Below, piece after piece: positions 3,751 to 10,051 of a stretch of DNA of 64,000 nucleotides. The notes under the pieces were generated by a model that made no database searches, was not told the DNA's origin, and saw only the letters and a list, made by a program, of their open reading frames with translations. Every line of letters begins with the position of its first letter. Within the stretch, counting starts at the first letter, position 1. Origin of the DNA: an uncultured bacterium (GTDB lineage: Bacteria > Margulisbacteria > WOR-1 > CAVSGV01); the NCBI GenBank assembly GCA_963727815.1, contig CAVSGV010000006.1:336851-400850 (forward strand), written 5' to 3'. Made by a program: the position numbers and the translations under genes.

Positions 3751-4700
3751 TCAGCCTCTTTCACAAGGTCCGATCAGCACGTCGACGGCCGGTTTAATCG
3801 TTCGTGTCCTTTATCTTCCAGACGTTGCCGCCGGAAAAAACTATTCCCTCATCGACAGTTCCCTGCTGCGCGTTGATCAGCGCCTGGATGATGCAGTATT
3901 CAAGCGAACACTTTTTAAGGCAGTAATCGCAGCCGATCGGCTTGCGGAGCCTTCTTGTCCAGGAATCTTTTCCACGAACTTGGTCTTGATCGCCCGTCCC
4001 GGCATTCCCACCGGGCTTGAGATTATGACGATATCCTCTTTCTTCGCGTTCTGATAGACCTTCTTATACTCGGGAGCGGCCGCGCATTCATTCGTGAGCA
4101 CGAACCTGGTCGCTATCTGCACGCCGTCCGCGCCAAGCTTGAACATCTTGACGATGTCGCAGCCGTCGGTGATGCCGCCTGCGGCTATGACGGGAAGTTC
4201 CGTGACAGCCCTAACCTCGGGGATATATGTCTGCAACGTGCCTGTCCGTGCCAAGATGTCCGCCCGCGTCGTAACCCTCTACAACGATCGCGGAGGCGCC
4301 GCTCTTGTCGGCTATCTTCGCGAGTTTGGCCGAAGAAACGATAGGGAGGATCGGAGTGCCGGATTCATCTCCGATCTTGAAGATATCCCTGGAGAAGCCG
4401 GCACCTGTTGTAATGACGCTGATGCTTTCCTCTATAGCCGTCTTGACGGCGCCCAGGAATTCCCTCGCGGCGAACATTATGTTAATCCCGACGATGCCCG
4501 CCCATGGCTATTTCCCTGGCTTTCCTTATCTCTTCCCTCAGCTCCGTGAGGTCCATGCCGGAAGCGCCGATCATGCCGACACCGCCGGCCCTGGCGATGG
4601 TTCCCGCCAGAAGGCCGGTCGATATCTTGACCGCCATGCCGCCCTGTATTATCGGTATCTTTGCGACAAGTTCACCTATCTTCAACTCAGGCAATTTCAA
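3751..4700 (-). CDS. Nitronate monooxygenase/FabK-family flavoprotein, FabX-like with C-terminal Fe-S cysteines (frameshifted)
   Basis: PIIQGGMAVKIS, VVEGYDAGGHLG, PVIAAGGI, SPVGMPGRAI, and in another frame GCDYCLKKCSLEYCIIQALINAQQG. 3' end approximate. Confidence 0.85.
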
Positions 4701-4782
4701 GCGCTTCCTCCCTAATATGCATTCCCTTCGCCTGTCCCGGATCAGTGATAATCAAGGACCTGCGAAGTAATCGTTATCTGAC

Positions 4783-5029
4783 TTACTTCTTGCCGTGCGA
4801 GAGAACGTAGTTGACCGTGTCTCCAACTGTCTTGATCTTCTCCGCTTCTTCGTCCGGTATCTCCAGACCAAAAGCTTCTTCAAGCGCCATGACCAACTCG
4901 ACCGTATCCAGCGAATCCGCGCCCAGGTCATCGACGAAAGAAGCTTCTTTCTTCACTTCACGCTTCTGAAACTCCCAGCTGATCCACGACCACTTTCTTC
5001 ACCTGCTCGAACACTTTTGCCTCATCCAT
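4783..5029 (-). CDS. acpP: Acyl carrier protein (one frameshift)
   Basis: Manual translation [23 protein letters not shown] / [47 protein letters not shown]; phosphopantetheine DSL motif. Confidence 0.93.
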
Positions 5030-5076
5030 TACACTATCACCCCTTTCTTAAAATATACTCAATAGTCAAAAATACA

Positions 5077-5817
5077 TTACATGTACATTCCGCCGTTAAC
5101 GTTCATCACCTGTCCCGTCATGTAATCCGCGTCGGCGCAAAGGAAAACAACGGCTTTTGCTATGTCATCCGGAGTTCCGAGCCTGACGAGCGGGTATCTG
5201 CTCGCTGAGCTTTTCTTGACGTCGTCGGACAACTTCTGCGTCATCGCCGTGTCAATGAACCCCGGAGCGATCGCGTTGCAGGTGATATTCCTGCCCGCAA
5301 GTTCCCTGGCCACGGTCTTTGTGAACCCGATAGCTCCGGCTTTCGCCGCCGCATAGTTCGCCTGTCCGAAATTACCCATTTCGCCGACGATCGACGCTAT
5401 GTTAATTATTCTACCCCAACGTGATTTCATCATCAAGGGGGCCACCGCCTTCGTGCAGAGGAACATGGATCTCAGGTTCACGTTCAGCACCGCGTCCCAG
5501 TCCTCGTCCTTCATCCTGATAAGAGGCGTGTCGCGCGTGATGCCGGCGTTGTTCACCAGATATGTCGATCTTGCCGAAAGTCTTTGCGATCTGCTCGATG
5601 CCGGTAGTTGACGTCCGCGGAATCTGCCACGTTCATCTTGACCGCCATGGTCTTTACGCCCATCTCGGCGATCTCCTTGGCTGTGGCGAGCGCGGCGTCC
5701 ATGTTGATATCCGAAATCACGATGTCCGCGCCTTCTTTTGCCAGCGCTATCCGCGATGGACTTACCGATCCCCTGCGCGGAGCCGGTTACCAGAGCGACT
5801 CTTCCTTTTAGTTTCAT
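5077..5817 (-). CDS. fabG: 3-oxoacyl-ACP reductase (compensating frameshifts)
   Basis: [61 protein letters not shown] upstream of 5817. Confidence 0.93.
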
Positions 5818-5836
5818 ATGAATACCTCCTTTCGAT

Positions 5837-5913
5837 GTCACCCTGAGCCAACGGCGAAGGGTCTGCATTTTTAAATTCAGATTCTTCGTCCGCCTGCGGC
5901 AACTCAGAATGAC
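5837..5913. repeat. REP-like palindromic element, copy 1 (GTCACCCTGAGC..CGAAGGGTCT..AGATTCTTCG..CTCAGAATGAC)
   Basis: Imperfect inverted repeat between fabD and fabG; a closely similar copy lies at 10076-10141. Confidence 0.8.
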
Positions 5914-6886: not shown

Positions 6887-6887
6887 G

Positions 6888-8089
6888 TTATCCTCTGACC
6901 TCTTTCAGTTTCTTCGTGAGCTTGGGCACGATCTCGAAAAGATCGCCCACTATGCCGTACGTGGCGACTTTGAATATGGGCGCCTCGGGATCCTTGTTTA
7001 TGGCGACGATGATGTCGGACGACTGCATTCCGGCCAGATGCTGTATCGCGCCGGAGATTCCTACGGCGATATAAAGTTTCGGGCACACTGTCTTTCCCGT
7101 CTGTCCAACCTGGTGATGGGAAGATATCCAGCCCGCGTCAACGGTGGCGCGCGAAGCTCCTACCGCCCCGCCGATCACCTCCGCCAGCTCCTCGACCAGC
7201 TTGAAGTTCTCCGGCGCCCGCAGGCCTCTTCCGCCGGAAACGATGATCTCCGCTTCGGCGAGATTCACCTTTACTGTCTGTGTCTTTGATGATCTCGGCA
7301 AGTTTCGCGATAAGGTCTTCGCTGCTTTATCTTCGGGGAGACCTTTATGATCTCGCCTTTCCTGGAATGGTCCGGCTCCGCTTTCTTGAAGACCTTAGGC
7401 CTTACGGTGGACATCTGCGGCCTGTGGTTCTTGCATATGATAGTGGCCATGATGTTGCCGCCGAAAGCCGGACGCGTCTGCTGGAGCAGTTTCGTTTCCT
7501 TGTCTATCGCAAGCCCAGTGCAGTCTGCCGTAAGCCCGGCGTTGATCCTGGCGGCGATCCGTGACGCCAGGTCGCTTCCGGTCGTCGTTGCGCCGAAAAG
7601 AACGATCTCCGGCTTGTACTGGCTTATCATGTCCGATATCACCGGAGCGTAGGGGAGGGTGGTGTAGTCCTTCAGCTCCGGCGCTATTGCGAGATAGACC
7701 TTGTCGGCGCCGTAAGCGATCAGTTCCTTCGCTTCCTTTTCGACGTTCGGGTCGCCGAGAAGAAGCGCGCAAAGCTCGACTCCAAGCTCCTTGGCCAGCT
7801 TTTTGCCTTCGCCGAGAAGTTCGACCGCGACCGGATGCACGTCGCCCTCATACTGTTCCGCGAAGACCCAAATGCCCTTGTACTGGCTCTTATCAACTGA
7901 CGTTGACGTCTTCTTTTGTGATCTCGATCGCCTTGAACTTGCAGGAGGAGGGGCAGGCGCCGCAGAGAGTGCACTTATCAAGGTCGATGACCGCTTTCTT
8001 GTCGACTATGGTTATCGCGCCGAGATGGGCACGCCGGCACGCAGAGCTTGCACCCGATGCACTTGTCATTTGATAACTCTTATGCCCAT
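6888..8089 (-). CDS. etfA: Electron transfer flavoprotein alpha subunit with N-terminal 2[4Fe-4S] ferredoxin domain (frameshifted)
   Basis: [46 protein letters not shown]-terminal CIGCKLC and [13 protein letters not shown] motifs. Confidence 0.92.
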
Positions 8090-8090
8090 A

Positions 8091-8878
8091 TCAGCAGACC
8101 TTCCTGTCGCGGAGTTTTTTCACCAGCGAATCCACCATCTCATCGGCCGATCCGTTGAGTATCTCCCCGCCGCCTTTCGGTGGAGGAGTGAATATCTTTA
8201 CGACGGAAGTGGGCGAACCCTTTTGTCCGATCTTGCCGTCTTCGGCGTTGATGTCCTTCGCGCCCCACGTGGGGATGACAGCGCTCTTCGCCTTTATCTT
8301 TCCTTTGAAAGAGGGCATCCTGGGAGTGTTCATCTGTTTCACAACGGTTATGACGAGCGGGAAGCTTGAGTTCGATTATTTCATTGGTGTCTTCAAGCAG
8401 CCTGTTCATCTTTGGCCATGTTGCCGTTCACTTCTATGCCGACCGCGAAAGTGACCTGAGGCAGATCCGAGGAATTCCGCAACTCCCGGGCCTACCTGCG
8501 CGGTATCACCGTCTATCGCCTGTTTTCCGCATATAATGAGGTCAAACTGGCCGATCTTTTTGATTGCCGATGCGAGAGTGTAAGAGGTAGCCCACGTATC
8601 GGATCCCGGCAAATGCGCTGTCGGATAAGAAGCACCGCTTCATCCGCGCCCAGGGCGATGGCGTCCCGCAGCGCCGAGGTCGCCTGCGGAGGACCCATCG
8701 TTATGACGGTCACTTTTCCGCCGTGCTTGTCGCGCAGCTGGAGCGCCGCTTCTATCGCGTTCTCGTCAAATGGATTGATGATGGCCTCCACGCCTTCTCT
8801 TATGAGCGTGTTGGTTTCGGGGTTTATCCTGACCTGCGTGGTTCCCGGGACCTGTTTGATGCAGACAATGATGTTCAT
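8091..8878 (-). CDS. etfB: Electron transfer flavoprotein beta subunit (frameshifted)
   Basis: [52 protein letters not shown]. Confidence 0.92.
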
Positions 8879-8898
8879 CTCTGGCTGTAGCCTACTTT

Positions 8899-10051
8899 TT
8901 AGCCGCAAGCTCCTTGATCAGCTCGAGCGCGATGACGTTGCGCTGTATCTGGTTGGTGCCCTTCGTATATCTGCGTTATCTTGGCGTCCCTCATCATCTT
9001 CTCGACCGGATATTCCTTCATGTAGCCGTATCCGCCGAACAACTGCACCGCGTCGGTGGTCACCTTCATTGCGGTGTCGGACGCGAACAGCTTGCACATC
9101 GCGGAAAGCTTTGACGTTTCCTTTGAGCCCGCGTCGATCTCCTTTGCGGCGGCGTATACAAGCGCTCCTTGCGGCTTCCGTCTGCGTGGCCATGTCGGCC
9201 AGCATGTGCTGGATGGCCTGGAACGTGCTGATCTTTGCGCCGAACTGCTCCCTCTCCCGTGAATATTTAAGCGCTTCATTCAGCGCGCCCTGCGCTATGC
9301 CGACCGCCTGAGCCGCGATGCCGGGCCTGGTCTTGTCCAGCGTTTTCATCGCGACGATGAAGCCCATGCCTTCTTTGCCGAGCATCTGGCTCTTGTGGAC
9401 TTTGCAGTCCTGGAAAACAAGCTCCCTTGTCGCCGATGCCCTGATGCCCATCTTGTTCTCTTTTTTCCGAAAGTGAATCCTGGCATGTCCTTTTCAAGTA
9501 TGAAAGCGGAAGCGCCTCTTGCGCCCTTTGCCTTATCGGTGATGAGCGATGACGGAATATGTTTCCGCTTCGCCGCCGTTGGTTATCCACTGTTTTGTGC
9601 CGTTGAGTATGAAATAGTCGCCGTCTTTCTTTGCCGTGGTCTGCATTCCGCCCGCGTCACTTCCCGCGTTCGCTTCGGTCAGCCCGAATGCCGCCAGTTT
9701 TTTCCGCGGACGCGATATCAGGCAGATATTTTTTCTTCTGTTCCTCGCTGCCAAAAAGGATTATCGGCATCGTGCCCAGGCCTGTTGCCGCGTAAGAGAG
9801 AGCGATGCCGGCGCAGACGGTGAAAGCTCTTCTGTGGCGATGCAGTATTCCATGGTGCCGCCGCCGATGCCGCCGTACTTTTCCTCTATCCCGATCCCGG
9901 TAAGGTTCGCTTCCGCGCACGCCTTCACGACCTCCCACGGGAACTTTCCGCTCTCATCCAGCTCCGCTCTTAAAGGAAGCGCTTTTTCCACCGCGATCTT
10001 CCTGGCCAATTCCTGGATCATTTTCTGTTCTTCAGTGAATCCGTAATCCAT
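8899..10051 (-). CDS. Acyl-CoA dehydrogenase, butyryl-CoA dehydrogenase (Bcd)-like (frameshifted)
   Basis: [67 protein letters not shown]. Confidence 0.9.

Follow-up and report, generated by a model that had tools for sequence, protein, structure and literature searches.

In a fatty-acid synthesis operon of an uncultured Saganbacteria genome, we lean towards reading the ACAD-etfB-etfA genes as an ETF-coupled, probably ferredoxin-reducing enoyl-ACP reductase of FAS-II that replaces FabI/FabK. The predicted reductase is probably used by the Saganbacteria and by several other anaerobic Margulisbacteria. The three genes would encode a flavoprotein complex of the CarCDE/Bcd-EtfAB type that catalyses the final reductive step in every elongation cycle. 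In the proposed mechanism, NADH would reduce the bifurcating FAD on EtfB, after which one electron would pass through the EtfA FAD and the ACAD FAD to trans-2-enoyl-ACP, and the other through the EtfA ferredoxin domain to ferredoxin. If this is true, some of the free energy released by reducing the enoyl group would be recovered through ferredoxin. We found no publication describing an ACAD-ETF module inside a fatty-acid synthesis operon.

The whole cluster lies on the minus strand of the analysed stretch of 64,000 nucleotides (the window). It begins with rpmF, encoding ribosomal protein L32 (12116..12376; open frame, 81% identity to the G004 protein by tblastn), plsX (11121..12119; 332-aa open frame whose G004 orthologue matches Pfam FA_synthesis) and the KAS III gene fabH (10162..11124; 320-aa open frame whose G004 orthologue matches NCBIfam fabH). 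These are followed by a Bcd-like gene of the acyl-CoA dehydrogenase family (ACAD, 8881..10051; Pfam Acyl-CoA_dh_N/M/1 on the orthologue), the small ETF subunit gene etfB (8091..8878) and the large subunit gene etfA (6888..8089), whose product has an N-terminal 2x[4Fe-4S] ferredoxin domain. Downstream are fabD (about 5940..6886), fabG (5077..5817), acpP (4783..5029; DSLD at 4906-4917), a FabK-like flavoprotein gene of the NMO family with four cysteines (3736..4783) and fabF (2496..3747). The gene that follows fabF in most relatives encodes a large conserved protein, here an open frame that runs off the window (1..2322), with a sub-threshold DUF2460 match alone. The gene content and order agree with the earlier note, which placed a bcd-like gene, etfB and etfA between fabH and fabD and a single nucleotide between the etfA stop (6888-6890) and the fabD start, a TTG at 6886. 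The note was also right that neither fabI nor fabZ is in view in the operon; fabZ is located elsewhere, as a fusion to lpxA. What it missed is that the frames of all genes from ACAD to fabF are broken.

None of these eight genes is an open frame in the window; the error-ridden stretch follows fabH, which is still intact, and ends with fabF. No long ORFs were found there under table 11, table 4, TAG=Q or TAA=Q. The 301-aa ORF listed at fabG is partly out of frame. Alignment to the intact G004 operon revealed 51 frameshifting indels, comprising 42 insertions and 9 deletions. They are distributed as seven indels in ACAD, five insertions each in etfB and etfA, eight insertions in fabD, five indels in fabG, one insertion in acpP, nine indels in the FabK-like gene and eleven in fabF. 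Such damage over eight consecutive genes, together with a genome completeness of just 70.5% despite an assembly of six contigs, could be taken to mean that the operon now consists of consecutive pseudogenes and that the organism has lost fatty-acid synthesis. We regard this as extremely unlikely. Once the indel columns are removed, the eight genes contain no stops in 2,398 codons, and the frame-corrected genes show 80-92% amino-acid identity to G004 with a dN/dS of 0.03-0.09. Bacterial indels are usually biased toward deletion, the reverse of the 42:9 ratio seen here. The flanking fabH and plsX are intact. SDR genes are also split at a second place (G000:C6:652830-654182), which suggests that consensus errors occur in patches. 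Among 35 isolated one-base insertions, seven have an identical base adjacent. Because no stops remain after frame correction and dN/dS is low, the indel pattern fits unpolished consensus errors rather than decay. Relatives carry intact copies of the operon. Since the frame breaks would be assembly errors, we treat the operon as functional.

Sequence comparison assigns the ETF to the bifurcating CarDE/Bcd-Etf type. EtfB scored 246-269 bits against the bifurcating CarD, 5ol2_B and 4kpu_B, compared with 74-88 bits against non-bifurcating ETFs; its best match was CarD (6fah_B, 269 bits), and human 1efv_B scored 87 bits. EtfA matched CarE (6fah_A) over its full length, residues 1-395, including the ferredoxin domain (457 bits). 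The motifs that define group-2 ETFs, RxGV, GSPTxV and RPxFGG (PMC10734219), are represented by REGV (8789-8800) and GSPTSV (8202-8219) in etfB and RPAFGG (7457-7474) in etfA. PMC6349859 gives the annotation Bcd/EtfAB and judges bifurcation unlikely for this Etf. The bit scores of EtfB and EtfA and the group-2 motifs contradict the reason given there. Among solved structures, C. difficile Bcd (5ol2_C) matched ACAD best at 426 bits, and the Bcd proteins of bifurcating complexes are its nearest neighbours (426 and 410 bits, against 340 bits for CarC). All of the nearest solved relatives act on CoA thioesters. The motif with the catalytic glutamate, YEG, lies at 8956-8967, and Glu363 is invariant in 21 sequences. 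In some relatives EtfA is only 329-344 aa long and seemingly lacks the ferredoxin domain; ferredoxin reduction through this domain is therefore not universal.

The earlier note had tied its interpretation to an arrangement shared by relatives, and we found the arrangement conserved. The order fabH-ACAD-etfB-etfA-fabD-fabG-(acpP)-FabK-like-fabF occurs at all 16 class-level loci, two of which contain inserted unrelated genes. The etfA and fabD genes overlap or are separated by at most 9 nt in 10 of the 13 loci tabulated, and fabH lies within 200 bp of ACAD in 69 of the 83 genomes with an orthologous ACAD. Three genomes (G051, G069 and G075) combine a compact, FabF-containing fab operon with ACAD-etfB-etfA at another place in the genome. 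Against our reading, the ACAD-ETF genes of G068 adjoin a Cys-less NMO gene.

We also looked for the FabI, FabK and FabV families of enoyl reductase. FabI-like genes were absent from all 65 genomes of the class, which have at most one FabK-family gene each, and the FabK cut-off was reached in none of them. FabV had no match among 146 genomes, although the control genomes were silent too. A second SDR in G004, considered as an enoyl reductase, is a KduD-like sugar dehydrogenase instead. Across 146 Margulisbacteria genomes, 83 have an orthologous ACAD, 51 have FabI, none has both and 12 have neither, an exclusion that may reflect very few evolutionary events, as the counted genomes include kin and are not independent. 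G051, G069 and G075 lack FabI, crotonase and any NMO-family gene. Where Firmicute loci contain two NMO paralogues, the copy without the cysteines, which resembles canonical FabK, lies between fabH or plsX and fabD in 17 of 17 cases. The ACAD-ETF module thus occupies the slot that canonical FabK has in Firmicutes sharing this operon layout.

The FabK-family gene with a Cys motif described in the earlier note carries the four-Cys sequence CDYCLKKCSLEYC at 3893-3931 and a catalytic-His GGHLG at 4250-4264. Its model superimposes on Helicobacter pylori FabX (PDB 7E1Q) with a TMq of 0.82 at 34% identity. It has the FMN barrel, catalytic His and four-Cys motif in common with FabX, and its four cysteines align with FabX Cys300/304/308/320 (PMC8626469). 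The insertions of FabX, including one with the ACP-binding Arg164, are missing, and FabX Thr130 is replaced by Arg (PMC8626469). The cysteines are spaced as CxxCxxxCxxxxC in Saganbacteria and as CxxxCxxxCxxxxC in other Margulisbacteria, compared with Cx3Cx3Cx11C in FabX. The protein is equally close to FabK, with about equal scores to the two. It did not group with canonical FabK, a grouping that would have refuted the interpretation in the earlier note. Judged on sequence, this Fe-S protein belongs to a separate module and is intermediate between FabK and FabX. Most likely, it takes part in unsaturated fatty-acid synthesis as an enzyme of the FabX/UfaA kind; UfaA of Neisseria is grouped with FabX as the known system closest to it. 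Because the organisms are strict anaerobes, their enzyme cannot use O2 as acceptor.

Enoyl reduction could instead fall to this NMO-family protein, with electrons reaching its [4Fe-4S] cluster from ferredoxin or the EtfA ferredoxin domain, and ACAD-ETF serving as an electron-supply or redox-balancing partner. It is the sole FabK-family gene in 63 of the 65 class genomes and occurs together with ACAD-ETF in 61, its catalytic His and FMN-barrel residues are retained, and it resembles FabK as much as FabX. PMC11091888 further reports that a FabK inhibitor had an about eightfold higher MIC in F. nucleatum when the FabX homologue was overexpressed, a partial offset of the inhibition. We nevertheless consider this reading unlikely. 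Where the gene occurs in lineages other than those with ACAD, it is always accompanied by a conventional reductase, namely FabI in 7/7 genomes of family f50 and a Cys-less FabK in G118 and 5/5 Firmicute genomes. Moreover, G051, G069 and G075 have ACAD-ETF without the NMO gene, and the ACAD subunit would be left without a substrate. The same distribution bears on the earlier note's suggestion that the Fe-S enzyme acts on acyl-ACP as a dehydrogenase and isomerase, like FabX, with ETF/ACAD as an oxygen-independent electron sink. The aligned cysteines, the ferredoxin domain on EtfA and the shared operon in Saganbacteria speak for it, as does O2 being the sole acceptor known for FabX (PMC8626469). 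However, the modules separate in both directions: f50, G118 and all Firmicute loci among the 80 loci compared have the Fe-S gene without ACAD-ETF, and G051, G069 and G075 have the converse. Since the Fe-S gene is found with or without ACAD-ETF, an obligate link to ETF is unsupported. An electron sink would also leave the Saganbacteria without an enoyl reductase, and the ETF is of the NADH-oxidising bifurcating type rather than an acceptor type, so we find this reading very improbable.

It is also quite improbable, in our view, that the module is an ordinary fermentation reductase of crotonyl-CoA or another enoyl-CoA, or supplies primers for FabH, and that its position in the fab operon is incidental. 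ACAD is most similar to Bcd, the annotation in PMC6349859 is Bcd/EtfAB, and the three genes of G051 are on their own, flanked by obg and an HD-domain gene. Against this, crotonase was absent from all five Saganbacteria genomes, in which thiolase searches gave weak matches to FabH and FabF only and Hbd searches weak Rossmann matches only; crotonase was also absent from four of five further ACAD-bearing genomes. Thus no butyrate pathway is present, and the primer supply raised in the earlier note has no crotonyl-CoA source. Each Saganbacteria genome has one ACAD and one ETF pair, both in the fab operon, and the place beside fabH and the common translational coupling to fabD also argue against incidental placement. 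Of the note's readings, the comparative evidence favours a bifurcating enoyl reductase for FAS-II, given the bifurcating-type ETF, the exclusion of FabI, the canonical FabK slot and class-wide searches that found neither a FabI-like gene nor canonical FabK; the obligate sink and the primer supply fared poorly.

The predicted ETF-coupled enoyl-ACP reductase has the same three-subunit layout as the caffeyl-CoA reductase-Etf complex CarCDE of Acetobacterium woodii (PDB 6FAH), and its EtfA shares the N-terminal two-cluster ferredoxin domain of CarE. Unlike the carCDE genes, which lie in a caffeate-respiration cluster, the module lies in a fab operon, its ACAD is nearer Bcd than CarC, and its substrate is likely an ACP thioester. 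The Bcd-EtfAB complexes of C. difficile (5OL2) and A. fermentans (4KPU/4L1F) include the closest solved relatives of ACAD and have the same ETF type with group-2 motifs. They differ in that here the thiolase, Hbd and crotonase for making crotonyl-CoA are missing, EtfA has an extra ferredoxin domain, and the neighbours are fabH and fabD. The module would act at the pathway step for which FAS-II usually employs the enoyl-ACP reductases FabI and FabK; canonical FabK of Firmicutes occupies the same operon slot, and FabI and the module are mutually exclusive within the phylum. Whereas FabI and FabK belong to the SDR or NMO families, unrelated to ACAD plus ETF, the module would comprise three subunits with three FADs plus Fe-S clusters and would probably be coupled to ferredoxin reduction.

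Translating the minus strand of the window from stop to stop yields pieces of fatty-acid synthesis proteins in changing reading frames, and positions 2300-10100 hold no long open frame under table 11. A search with an EtfA fragment found a match in all 41 related genomes searched. One of them, the closed genome of a member of the same family (G004), carries the operon intact at locus L009. Its gene order is rpmF, plsX, fabH, an acyl-CoA dehydrogenase (ACAD, 385 aa), etfB (260 aa), etfA (398 aa, with a ferredoxin domain at the N terminus of its product), fabD, fabG, acpP, a gene for a FabK-like flavoprotein of the NMO family (347 aa), fabF and a large unknown protein. 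The G004 operon genes were also located in the window by tblastn and pairwise DNA alignment. In most loci of the class Saganbacteria, the gene after fabF encodes this large protein (845 to about 1490 aa); it lies at L009:1841-4378 in G004 and at 1-2322 on the minus strand of the window. The G004 copy contains tandem peptide repeats, and its sole family match is a sub-threshold one to DUF2460. Rfam had no match in the window.

An alternative genetic code was rejected as the source of the broken frames, as table 4, TAG=Q and TAA=Q all leave them closed. Alignment to G004 shows 51 frameshifting indels (42 insertions and nine deletions) across the run of eight genes that starts with ACAD and ends with fabF; fabH contains none, and plsX and rpmF have open frames. 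Once the indel columns are skipped, there is not one stop in 2,398 codons, the frame-corrected genes are 80-92% identical to G004 at the amino-acid level, and dN/dS is 0.03-0.09, except for fabG, where saturated synonymous sites leave the value undefined. So many indels without a single stop, together with this identity and the low dN/dS, argue against long decay. We infer from these alignments that the breaks arose as errors in a poorly polished consensus rather than by gene decay. Only seven of the 35 isolated single-base insertions adjoin an identical base. The GC content of the error-ridden stretch is 0.55 versus 0.50 across the remainder of the window, and the operon is 1-3 points higher in GC in relatives as well.

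Two adjoining SDR genes on the same contig (G000:C6:652830-654182, G000 being the source genome) are each split between frames, with Pfam matches in four pieces, which suggests more patches of indel errors elsewhere in this assembly. Its completeness of 70.5%, despite 1.68 Mb being assembled into only six contigs, fits such patchy errors. A genome-wide scan for frame switches with a codon model found 10 and 7 switches in 5-kb bins of the error-ridden region, versus about 2.5 per bin, but also flagged bins that may be rich in short genes and is too unspecific to count error patches. Although G004 is a closed genome, its fabG (L009:7052-7780) is also broken close to the 3' end, leaving a 208-aa ORF with the last 48 profile positions in another frame beyond a TGA. 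About 7.4 kb of essential genes in the source assembly should be polished before annotation.

The earlier note would have taken absence of this arrangement from relatives as a refutation of its reading, but the arrangement is kept. The order fabH-ACAD-etfB-etfA-fabD-fabG-FabK-like-fabF was found in 16 of 16 class-level loci, two of which (L015 and L020) have unrelated genes inserted. These interruptions of the operon in two Saganbacteria genomes, at L015:4602-8882 and at L020:5830-8242 and 10262-12461, consist mostly of opposite-strand genes. They encode a saccharopine-dehydrogenase-like protein with an Orn/DAP decarboxylase, an amidohydrolase and an AAA/DUF4143 protein, and offer no functional clue. 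The genes etfA and fabD overlap or are at most 9 nt apart in 10 of 13 loci, and their gap in the window is 1 nt. Orthologous ACADs (at least 63% identity) occur in 83 of 146 genomes of the phylum: 63 of the 65 within the class and 20 of the 81 outside. In 69 of these 83 genomes, fabH and ACAD lie within 200 bp of each other; the remainder have a larger gap (three), the two genes on separate contigs (nine) or no FabH match (two).

The ETF of this trio (ACAD, etfB and etfA) scores highest against electron-bifurcating proteins. EtfB reached 219-269 bits to 6fah_B, 5ol2_B, 4kpu_B, 7qh2_B and 7koe_A, all bifurcating, and 74-88 bits to the non-bifurcating 1efv_B, 1efp_B and 1o94_C from human, Paracoccus and Methylophilus. 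It is nearest to CarD of the Acetobacterium woodii caffeyl-CoA reductase-Etf complex and to EtfB of the bifurcating complexes from Clostridioides difficile and Acidaminococcus fermentans (246-269 bits). EtfA scored 305-457 bits to bifurcating ETFs versus 125-186 bits to non-bifurcating ones, and aligns with CarE over residues 1-395, including the ferredoxin domain, at 457 bits. Group 2 ETFs are described in PMC10734219 as having the motifs RxGV, GxxSPTxV and RPxFGG at the bifurcating FAD. The window fragments and G004 have REGV, GSPTSV and RPAFGG; for the second of these, the precise spacing was assessed by visual comparison with EtfB of C. difficile. By score and motifs, the ETF of the trio is thus predicted to be of the bifurcating, group 2 type, in which NADH would reduce ferredoxin alongside a high-potential acceptor. 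In some relatives EtfA is shorter, at 329-360 aa, and seems to lack the N-terminal ferredoxin domain (L119:5995-6984, L121:6066-7073, L027:6581 and L036:7142, and in family f11 open frames of 340-360 aa), so the ferredoxin fusion is not universal among fab-embedded ETFs.

The ACAD matches the Pfam N-terminal, middle and C-terminal domains (Acyl-CoA_dh_N/M/1) above their cut-offs, and the catalytic Glu363 in the YEG motif is invariant across 21 ACAD sequences. Its nearest solved relatives are the Bcd proteins of these bifurcating complexes (426 and 410 bits); CarC scores 340 bits. A putative Bcd near EtfAB was noted for all Saganbacteria in PMC6349859, where bifurcation was thought unlikely on the ground of an AMP-binding domain; the portion of that paper on Bcd/EtfAB does not mention the fab operon. 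The present scores and motifs contradict that ground and would correct the published view of the Saganbacteria Bcd/Etf as non-bifurcating.

A dehydrogenase of this kind might instead serve a complete butyrate/crotonyl-CoA pathway, an arrangement that the earlier note set against a role in fatty-acid synthesis. Pathway searches covered G000, G001, G004, G012 and G016, five Saganbacteria genomes of which two are closed. None of the five contained a crotonase, thiolase searches returned only cross-matches to FabH/FabF, and Hbd searches gave just weak Rossmann matches. The enzymes of crotonyl-CoA supply are therefore missing from all five genomes. Each of them has one ACAD, one ETF pair and one real NMO-family gene. 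Their sole FabZ is fused to LpxA in a single 430-aa protein of the lipid A cluster, lying between lpxC and lpxB (L108:1938-3230 in G004; G000:C6:254245-254613 in the source genome). G004 has a second strong SDR, which resembles KduD and sits among sugar genes. The source genome also has a second FabH-like gene (G000:C1:108410-109387), a 359-aa open frame 42% identical to the operon FabH.

Among the 65 class genomes, none has a FabI-like gene or a canonical FabK above the cut-off, and FabK-family genes number at most one per genome. Searches for FabV (PF12241) found none in the five or in the 146 genomes, but were silent in control genomes too, so that a FabV could have escaped them. Across the phylum, 51 of 146 genomes contain FabI-like genes, and none of these has an orthologous ACAD; 12 genomes have neither. 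Related genomes are not independent, and few evolutionary events may underlie these counts. NCBIfam verifies FabI in G081, G085, G119 and G120. In three genomes, G051, G069 and G075 (94%, 90% and 62% complete), FabH and FabF are either separated by about 2.1 kb or part of a split cluster, and ACAD-etfB-etfA is kept elsewhere; in G051 the trio stands alone, flanked by obg and an HD-domain gene. No FabI, NMO-family gene or crotonase was found in these three genomes, and no candidate for the enoyl reductase was found there other than the trio. G068 is a partial exception, as its ACAD-ETF adjoins an NMO gene lacking the cysteines described below. This gene (L159:1928-2938), whose product shares 32% identity with the canonical FabK of a Firmicute, is convergent to the stand-alone acad-etfB-etfA cluster of G068.

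The NMO-family protein encoded between acpP and fabF differs from canonical FabK. All 15 Saganbacteria sequences have an invariant H176 (in GGHLG) and CxxCxxxCxxxxC (C284, C287, C291 and C296); five other Margulisbacteria sequences have CxxxCxxxCxxxxC. The four cysteines align with the cluster region of Helicobacter pylori FabX, whose ligands are given as Cys300, 304, 308 and 320 (PMC8626469), and H176 aligns with its His182. They are putative [4Fe-4S] ligands, accompanied by the predicted counterpart of the catalytic His of FabX. Relative to Thermotoga maritima FabK (5gvh), the cysteine stretch is a nine-residue insertion. In FabX, according to the same paper, the Fe-S region takes the place of the NAD(P)H motif (PMC8626469), and an NAD(P)H-binding region free of an Fe-S motif, as in canonical FabK, was not found in the NMO protein. 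There are also differences from FabX: its ACP-binding Arg164 lies in a six-residue insertion absent from the NMO protein, and its Thr130, involved in ACP recognition, is replaced there by an invariant Arg.

Scores place this protein between the two families. The G004 protein reached 184.8 bits against the FabK equivalog TIGR03151, well below the cut-off of 453. Profile scores were 192.7 bits to FabX and 187.7 to T. maritima FabK, and single-sequence scores 120 and 146.5, respectively. A structural model (pLDDT 84) gave a model-versus-structure score (TMq) of 0.82 to FabX and 0.77-0.79 to FabKs. Grouping with canonical FabK, which the earlier note would have counted against its reading, was not observed: in a tree of 104 Cys-type and Cys-less proteins, with no FabX or UfaA among them, the 85 Cys-type sequences fall into a single clade, and the 19 Cys-less, canonical-FabK-like ones lie outside it. 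A search with the FabK-like profile retrieved only close relatives, under the generic names nitronate monooxygenase, 2-nitropropane dioxygenase or YrpB.

Cys-type genes occur in 84 of the 146 phylum genomes and in Firmicutes, where they are 52-60% identical and mostly lie between acpP and fabF. In all 17 Firmicute loci with both paralogues, the Cys-less gene lies between fabH or plsX and fabD. Cys-type and Cys-less genes occur together in five of five Firmicute genomes and in G118, and Cys-type genes accompany FabI in all seven genomes of family f50. Given these co-occurrences with FabI, FabK and ACAD-ETF, a separate enoyl reductase candidate is always found beside the Cys-type gene. An obligate tie of the Cys-type enzyme to ACAD-ETF, with ETF as its electron sink, is not supported, as the two separate in both directions. 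A less likely reading is that the Cys-type protein itself reduces enoyl-ACP; in its favour, the strict anaerobe Fusobacterium nucleatum has a FabX homologue beside FabK, and overexpression of this homologue partly relieves FabK inhibition (PMC11091888). The most economical account is one enoyl reductase per lineage, be it FabI, FabK or ACAD-ETF, with the Cys-type enzyme plausibly added in some lineages for FabX-like double-bond insertion. According to PMC8626469, FabX is not known to use any acceptor but O2. Where the Cys-type gene stands alone, in 12 Firmicute loci, three have a divergently adjacent gene for a 660-675-aa flavoprotein with Fer4_20, Pyr_redox_2 and MvhD/FlpD domains (L042:7725-9713, L048:7624-9606 and L050:5174-7195), a possible redox partner of the Cys-type enzyme. 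Other such loci have AOR and ferredoxin genes, or NuoF-like and formate-dehydrogenase genes, nearby.

Returning to the trio, its context makes it a putative FAS-II enoyl-ACP reductase: it lies in the fab operon, FabI and FabK are absent, and its distribution across the phylum complements that of FabI. The operon includes plsX and acpP, so its products must be acyl-ACPs, and the ACAD, if it is the reductase, would have to accept ACP thioesters. Tentatively, and with somewhat less than even confidence, we propose that anaerobic Margulisbacteria use a bifurcating ACAD-EtfAB on enoyl-ACP, gaining reduced ferredoxin per cycle, beside an O2-independent FabX-like Fe-S enzyme. The reduced ferredoxin from each elongation cycle could feed hydrogenases or Rnf, and the Fe-S enzyme would introduce the cis double bond without oxygen. 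Lipid synthesis would then be tied to ferredoxin-based energy conservation in energy-limited anaerobes, and the apparent lack of an enoyl reductase in many uncultured anaerobes would be explained.

Margulisbacteria are the sister lineage of Cyanobacteria. Their Fe-S FabK/FabX-like clade, which occupies one fixed fab-operon slot here and in many Firmicutes, bears on unsaturated fatty-acid synthesis in FabA-less strict anaerobes and on the electron acceptor of FabX-type enzymes in the absence of O2. Literature searches by title and abstract found nothing relevant, either on an Fe-S FabK or on an enoyl-ACP reductase that bifurcates or is linked to ETF. Enoyl reduction is the most variable and most drug-targeted step in bacterial fatty-acid synthesis. 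To our knowledge, the known enoyl reductases FabI, FabK, FabL and FabV are all single NAD(P)H-dependent proteins; if our proposal is correct, ACAD-ETF would join them in FAS-II as a fifth kind, one that belongs to an unrelated enzyme class and conserves energy.
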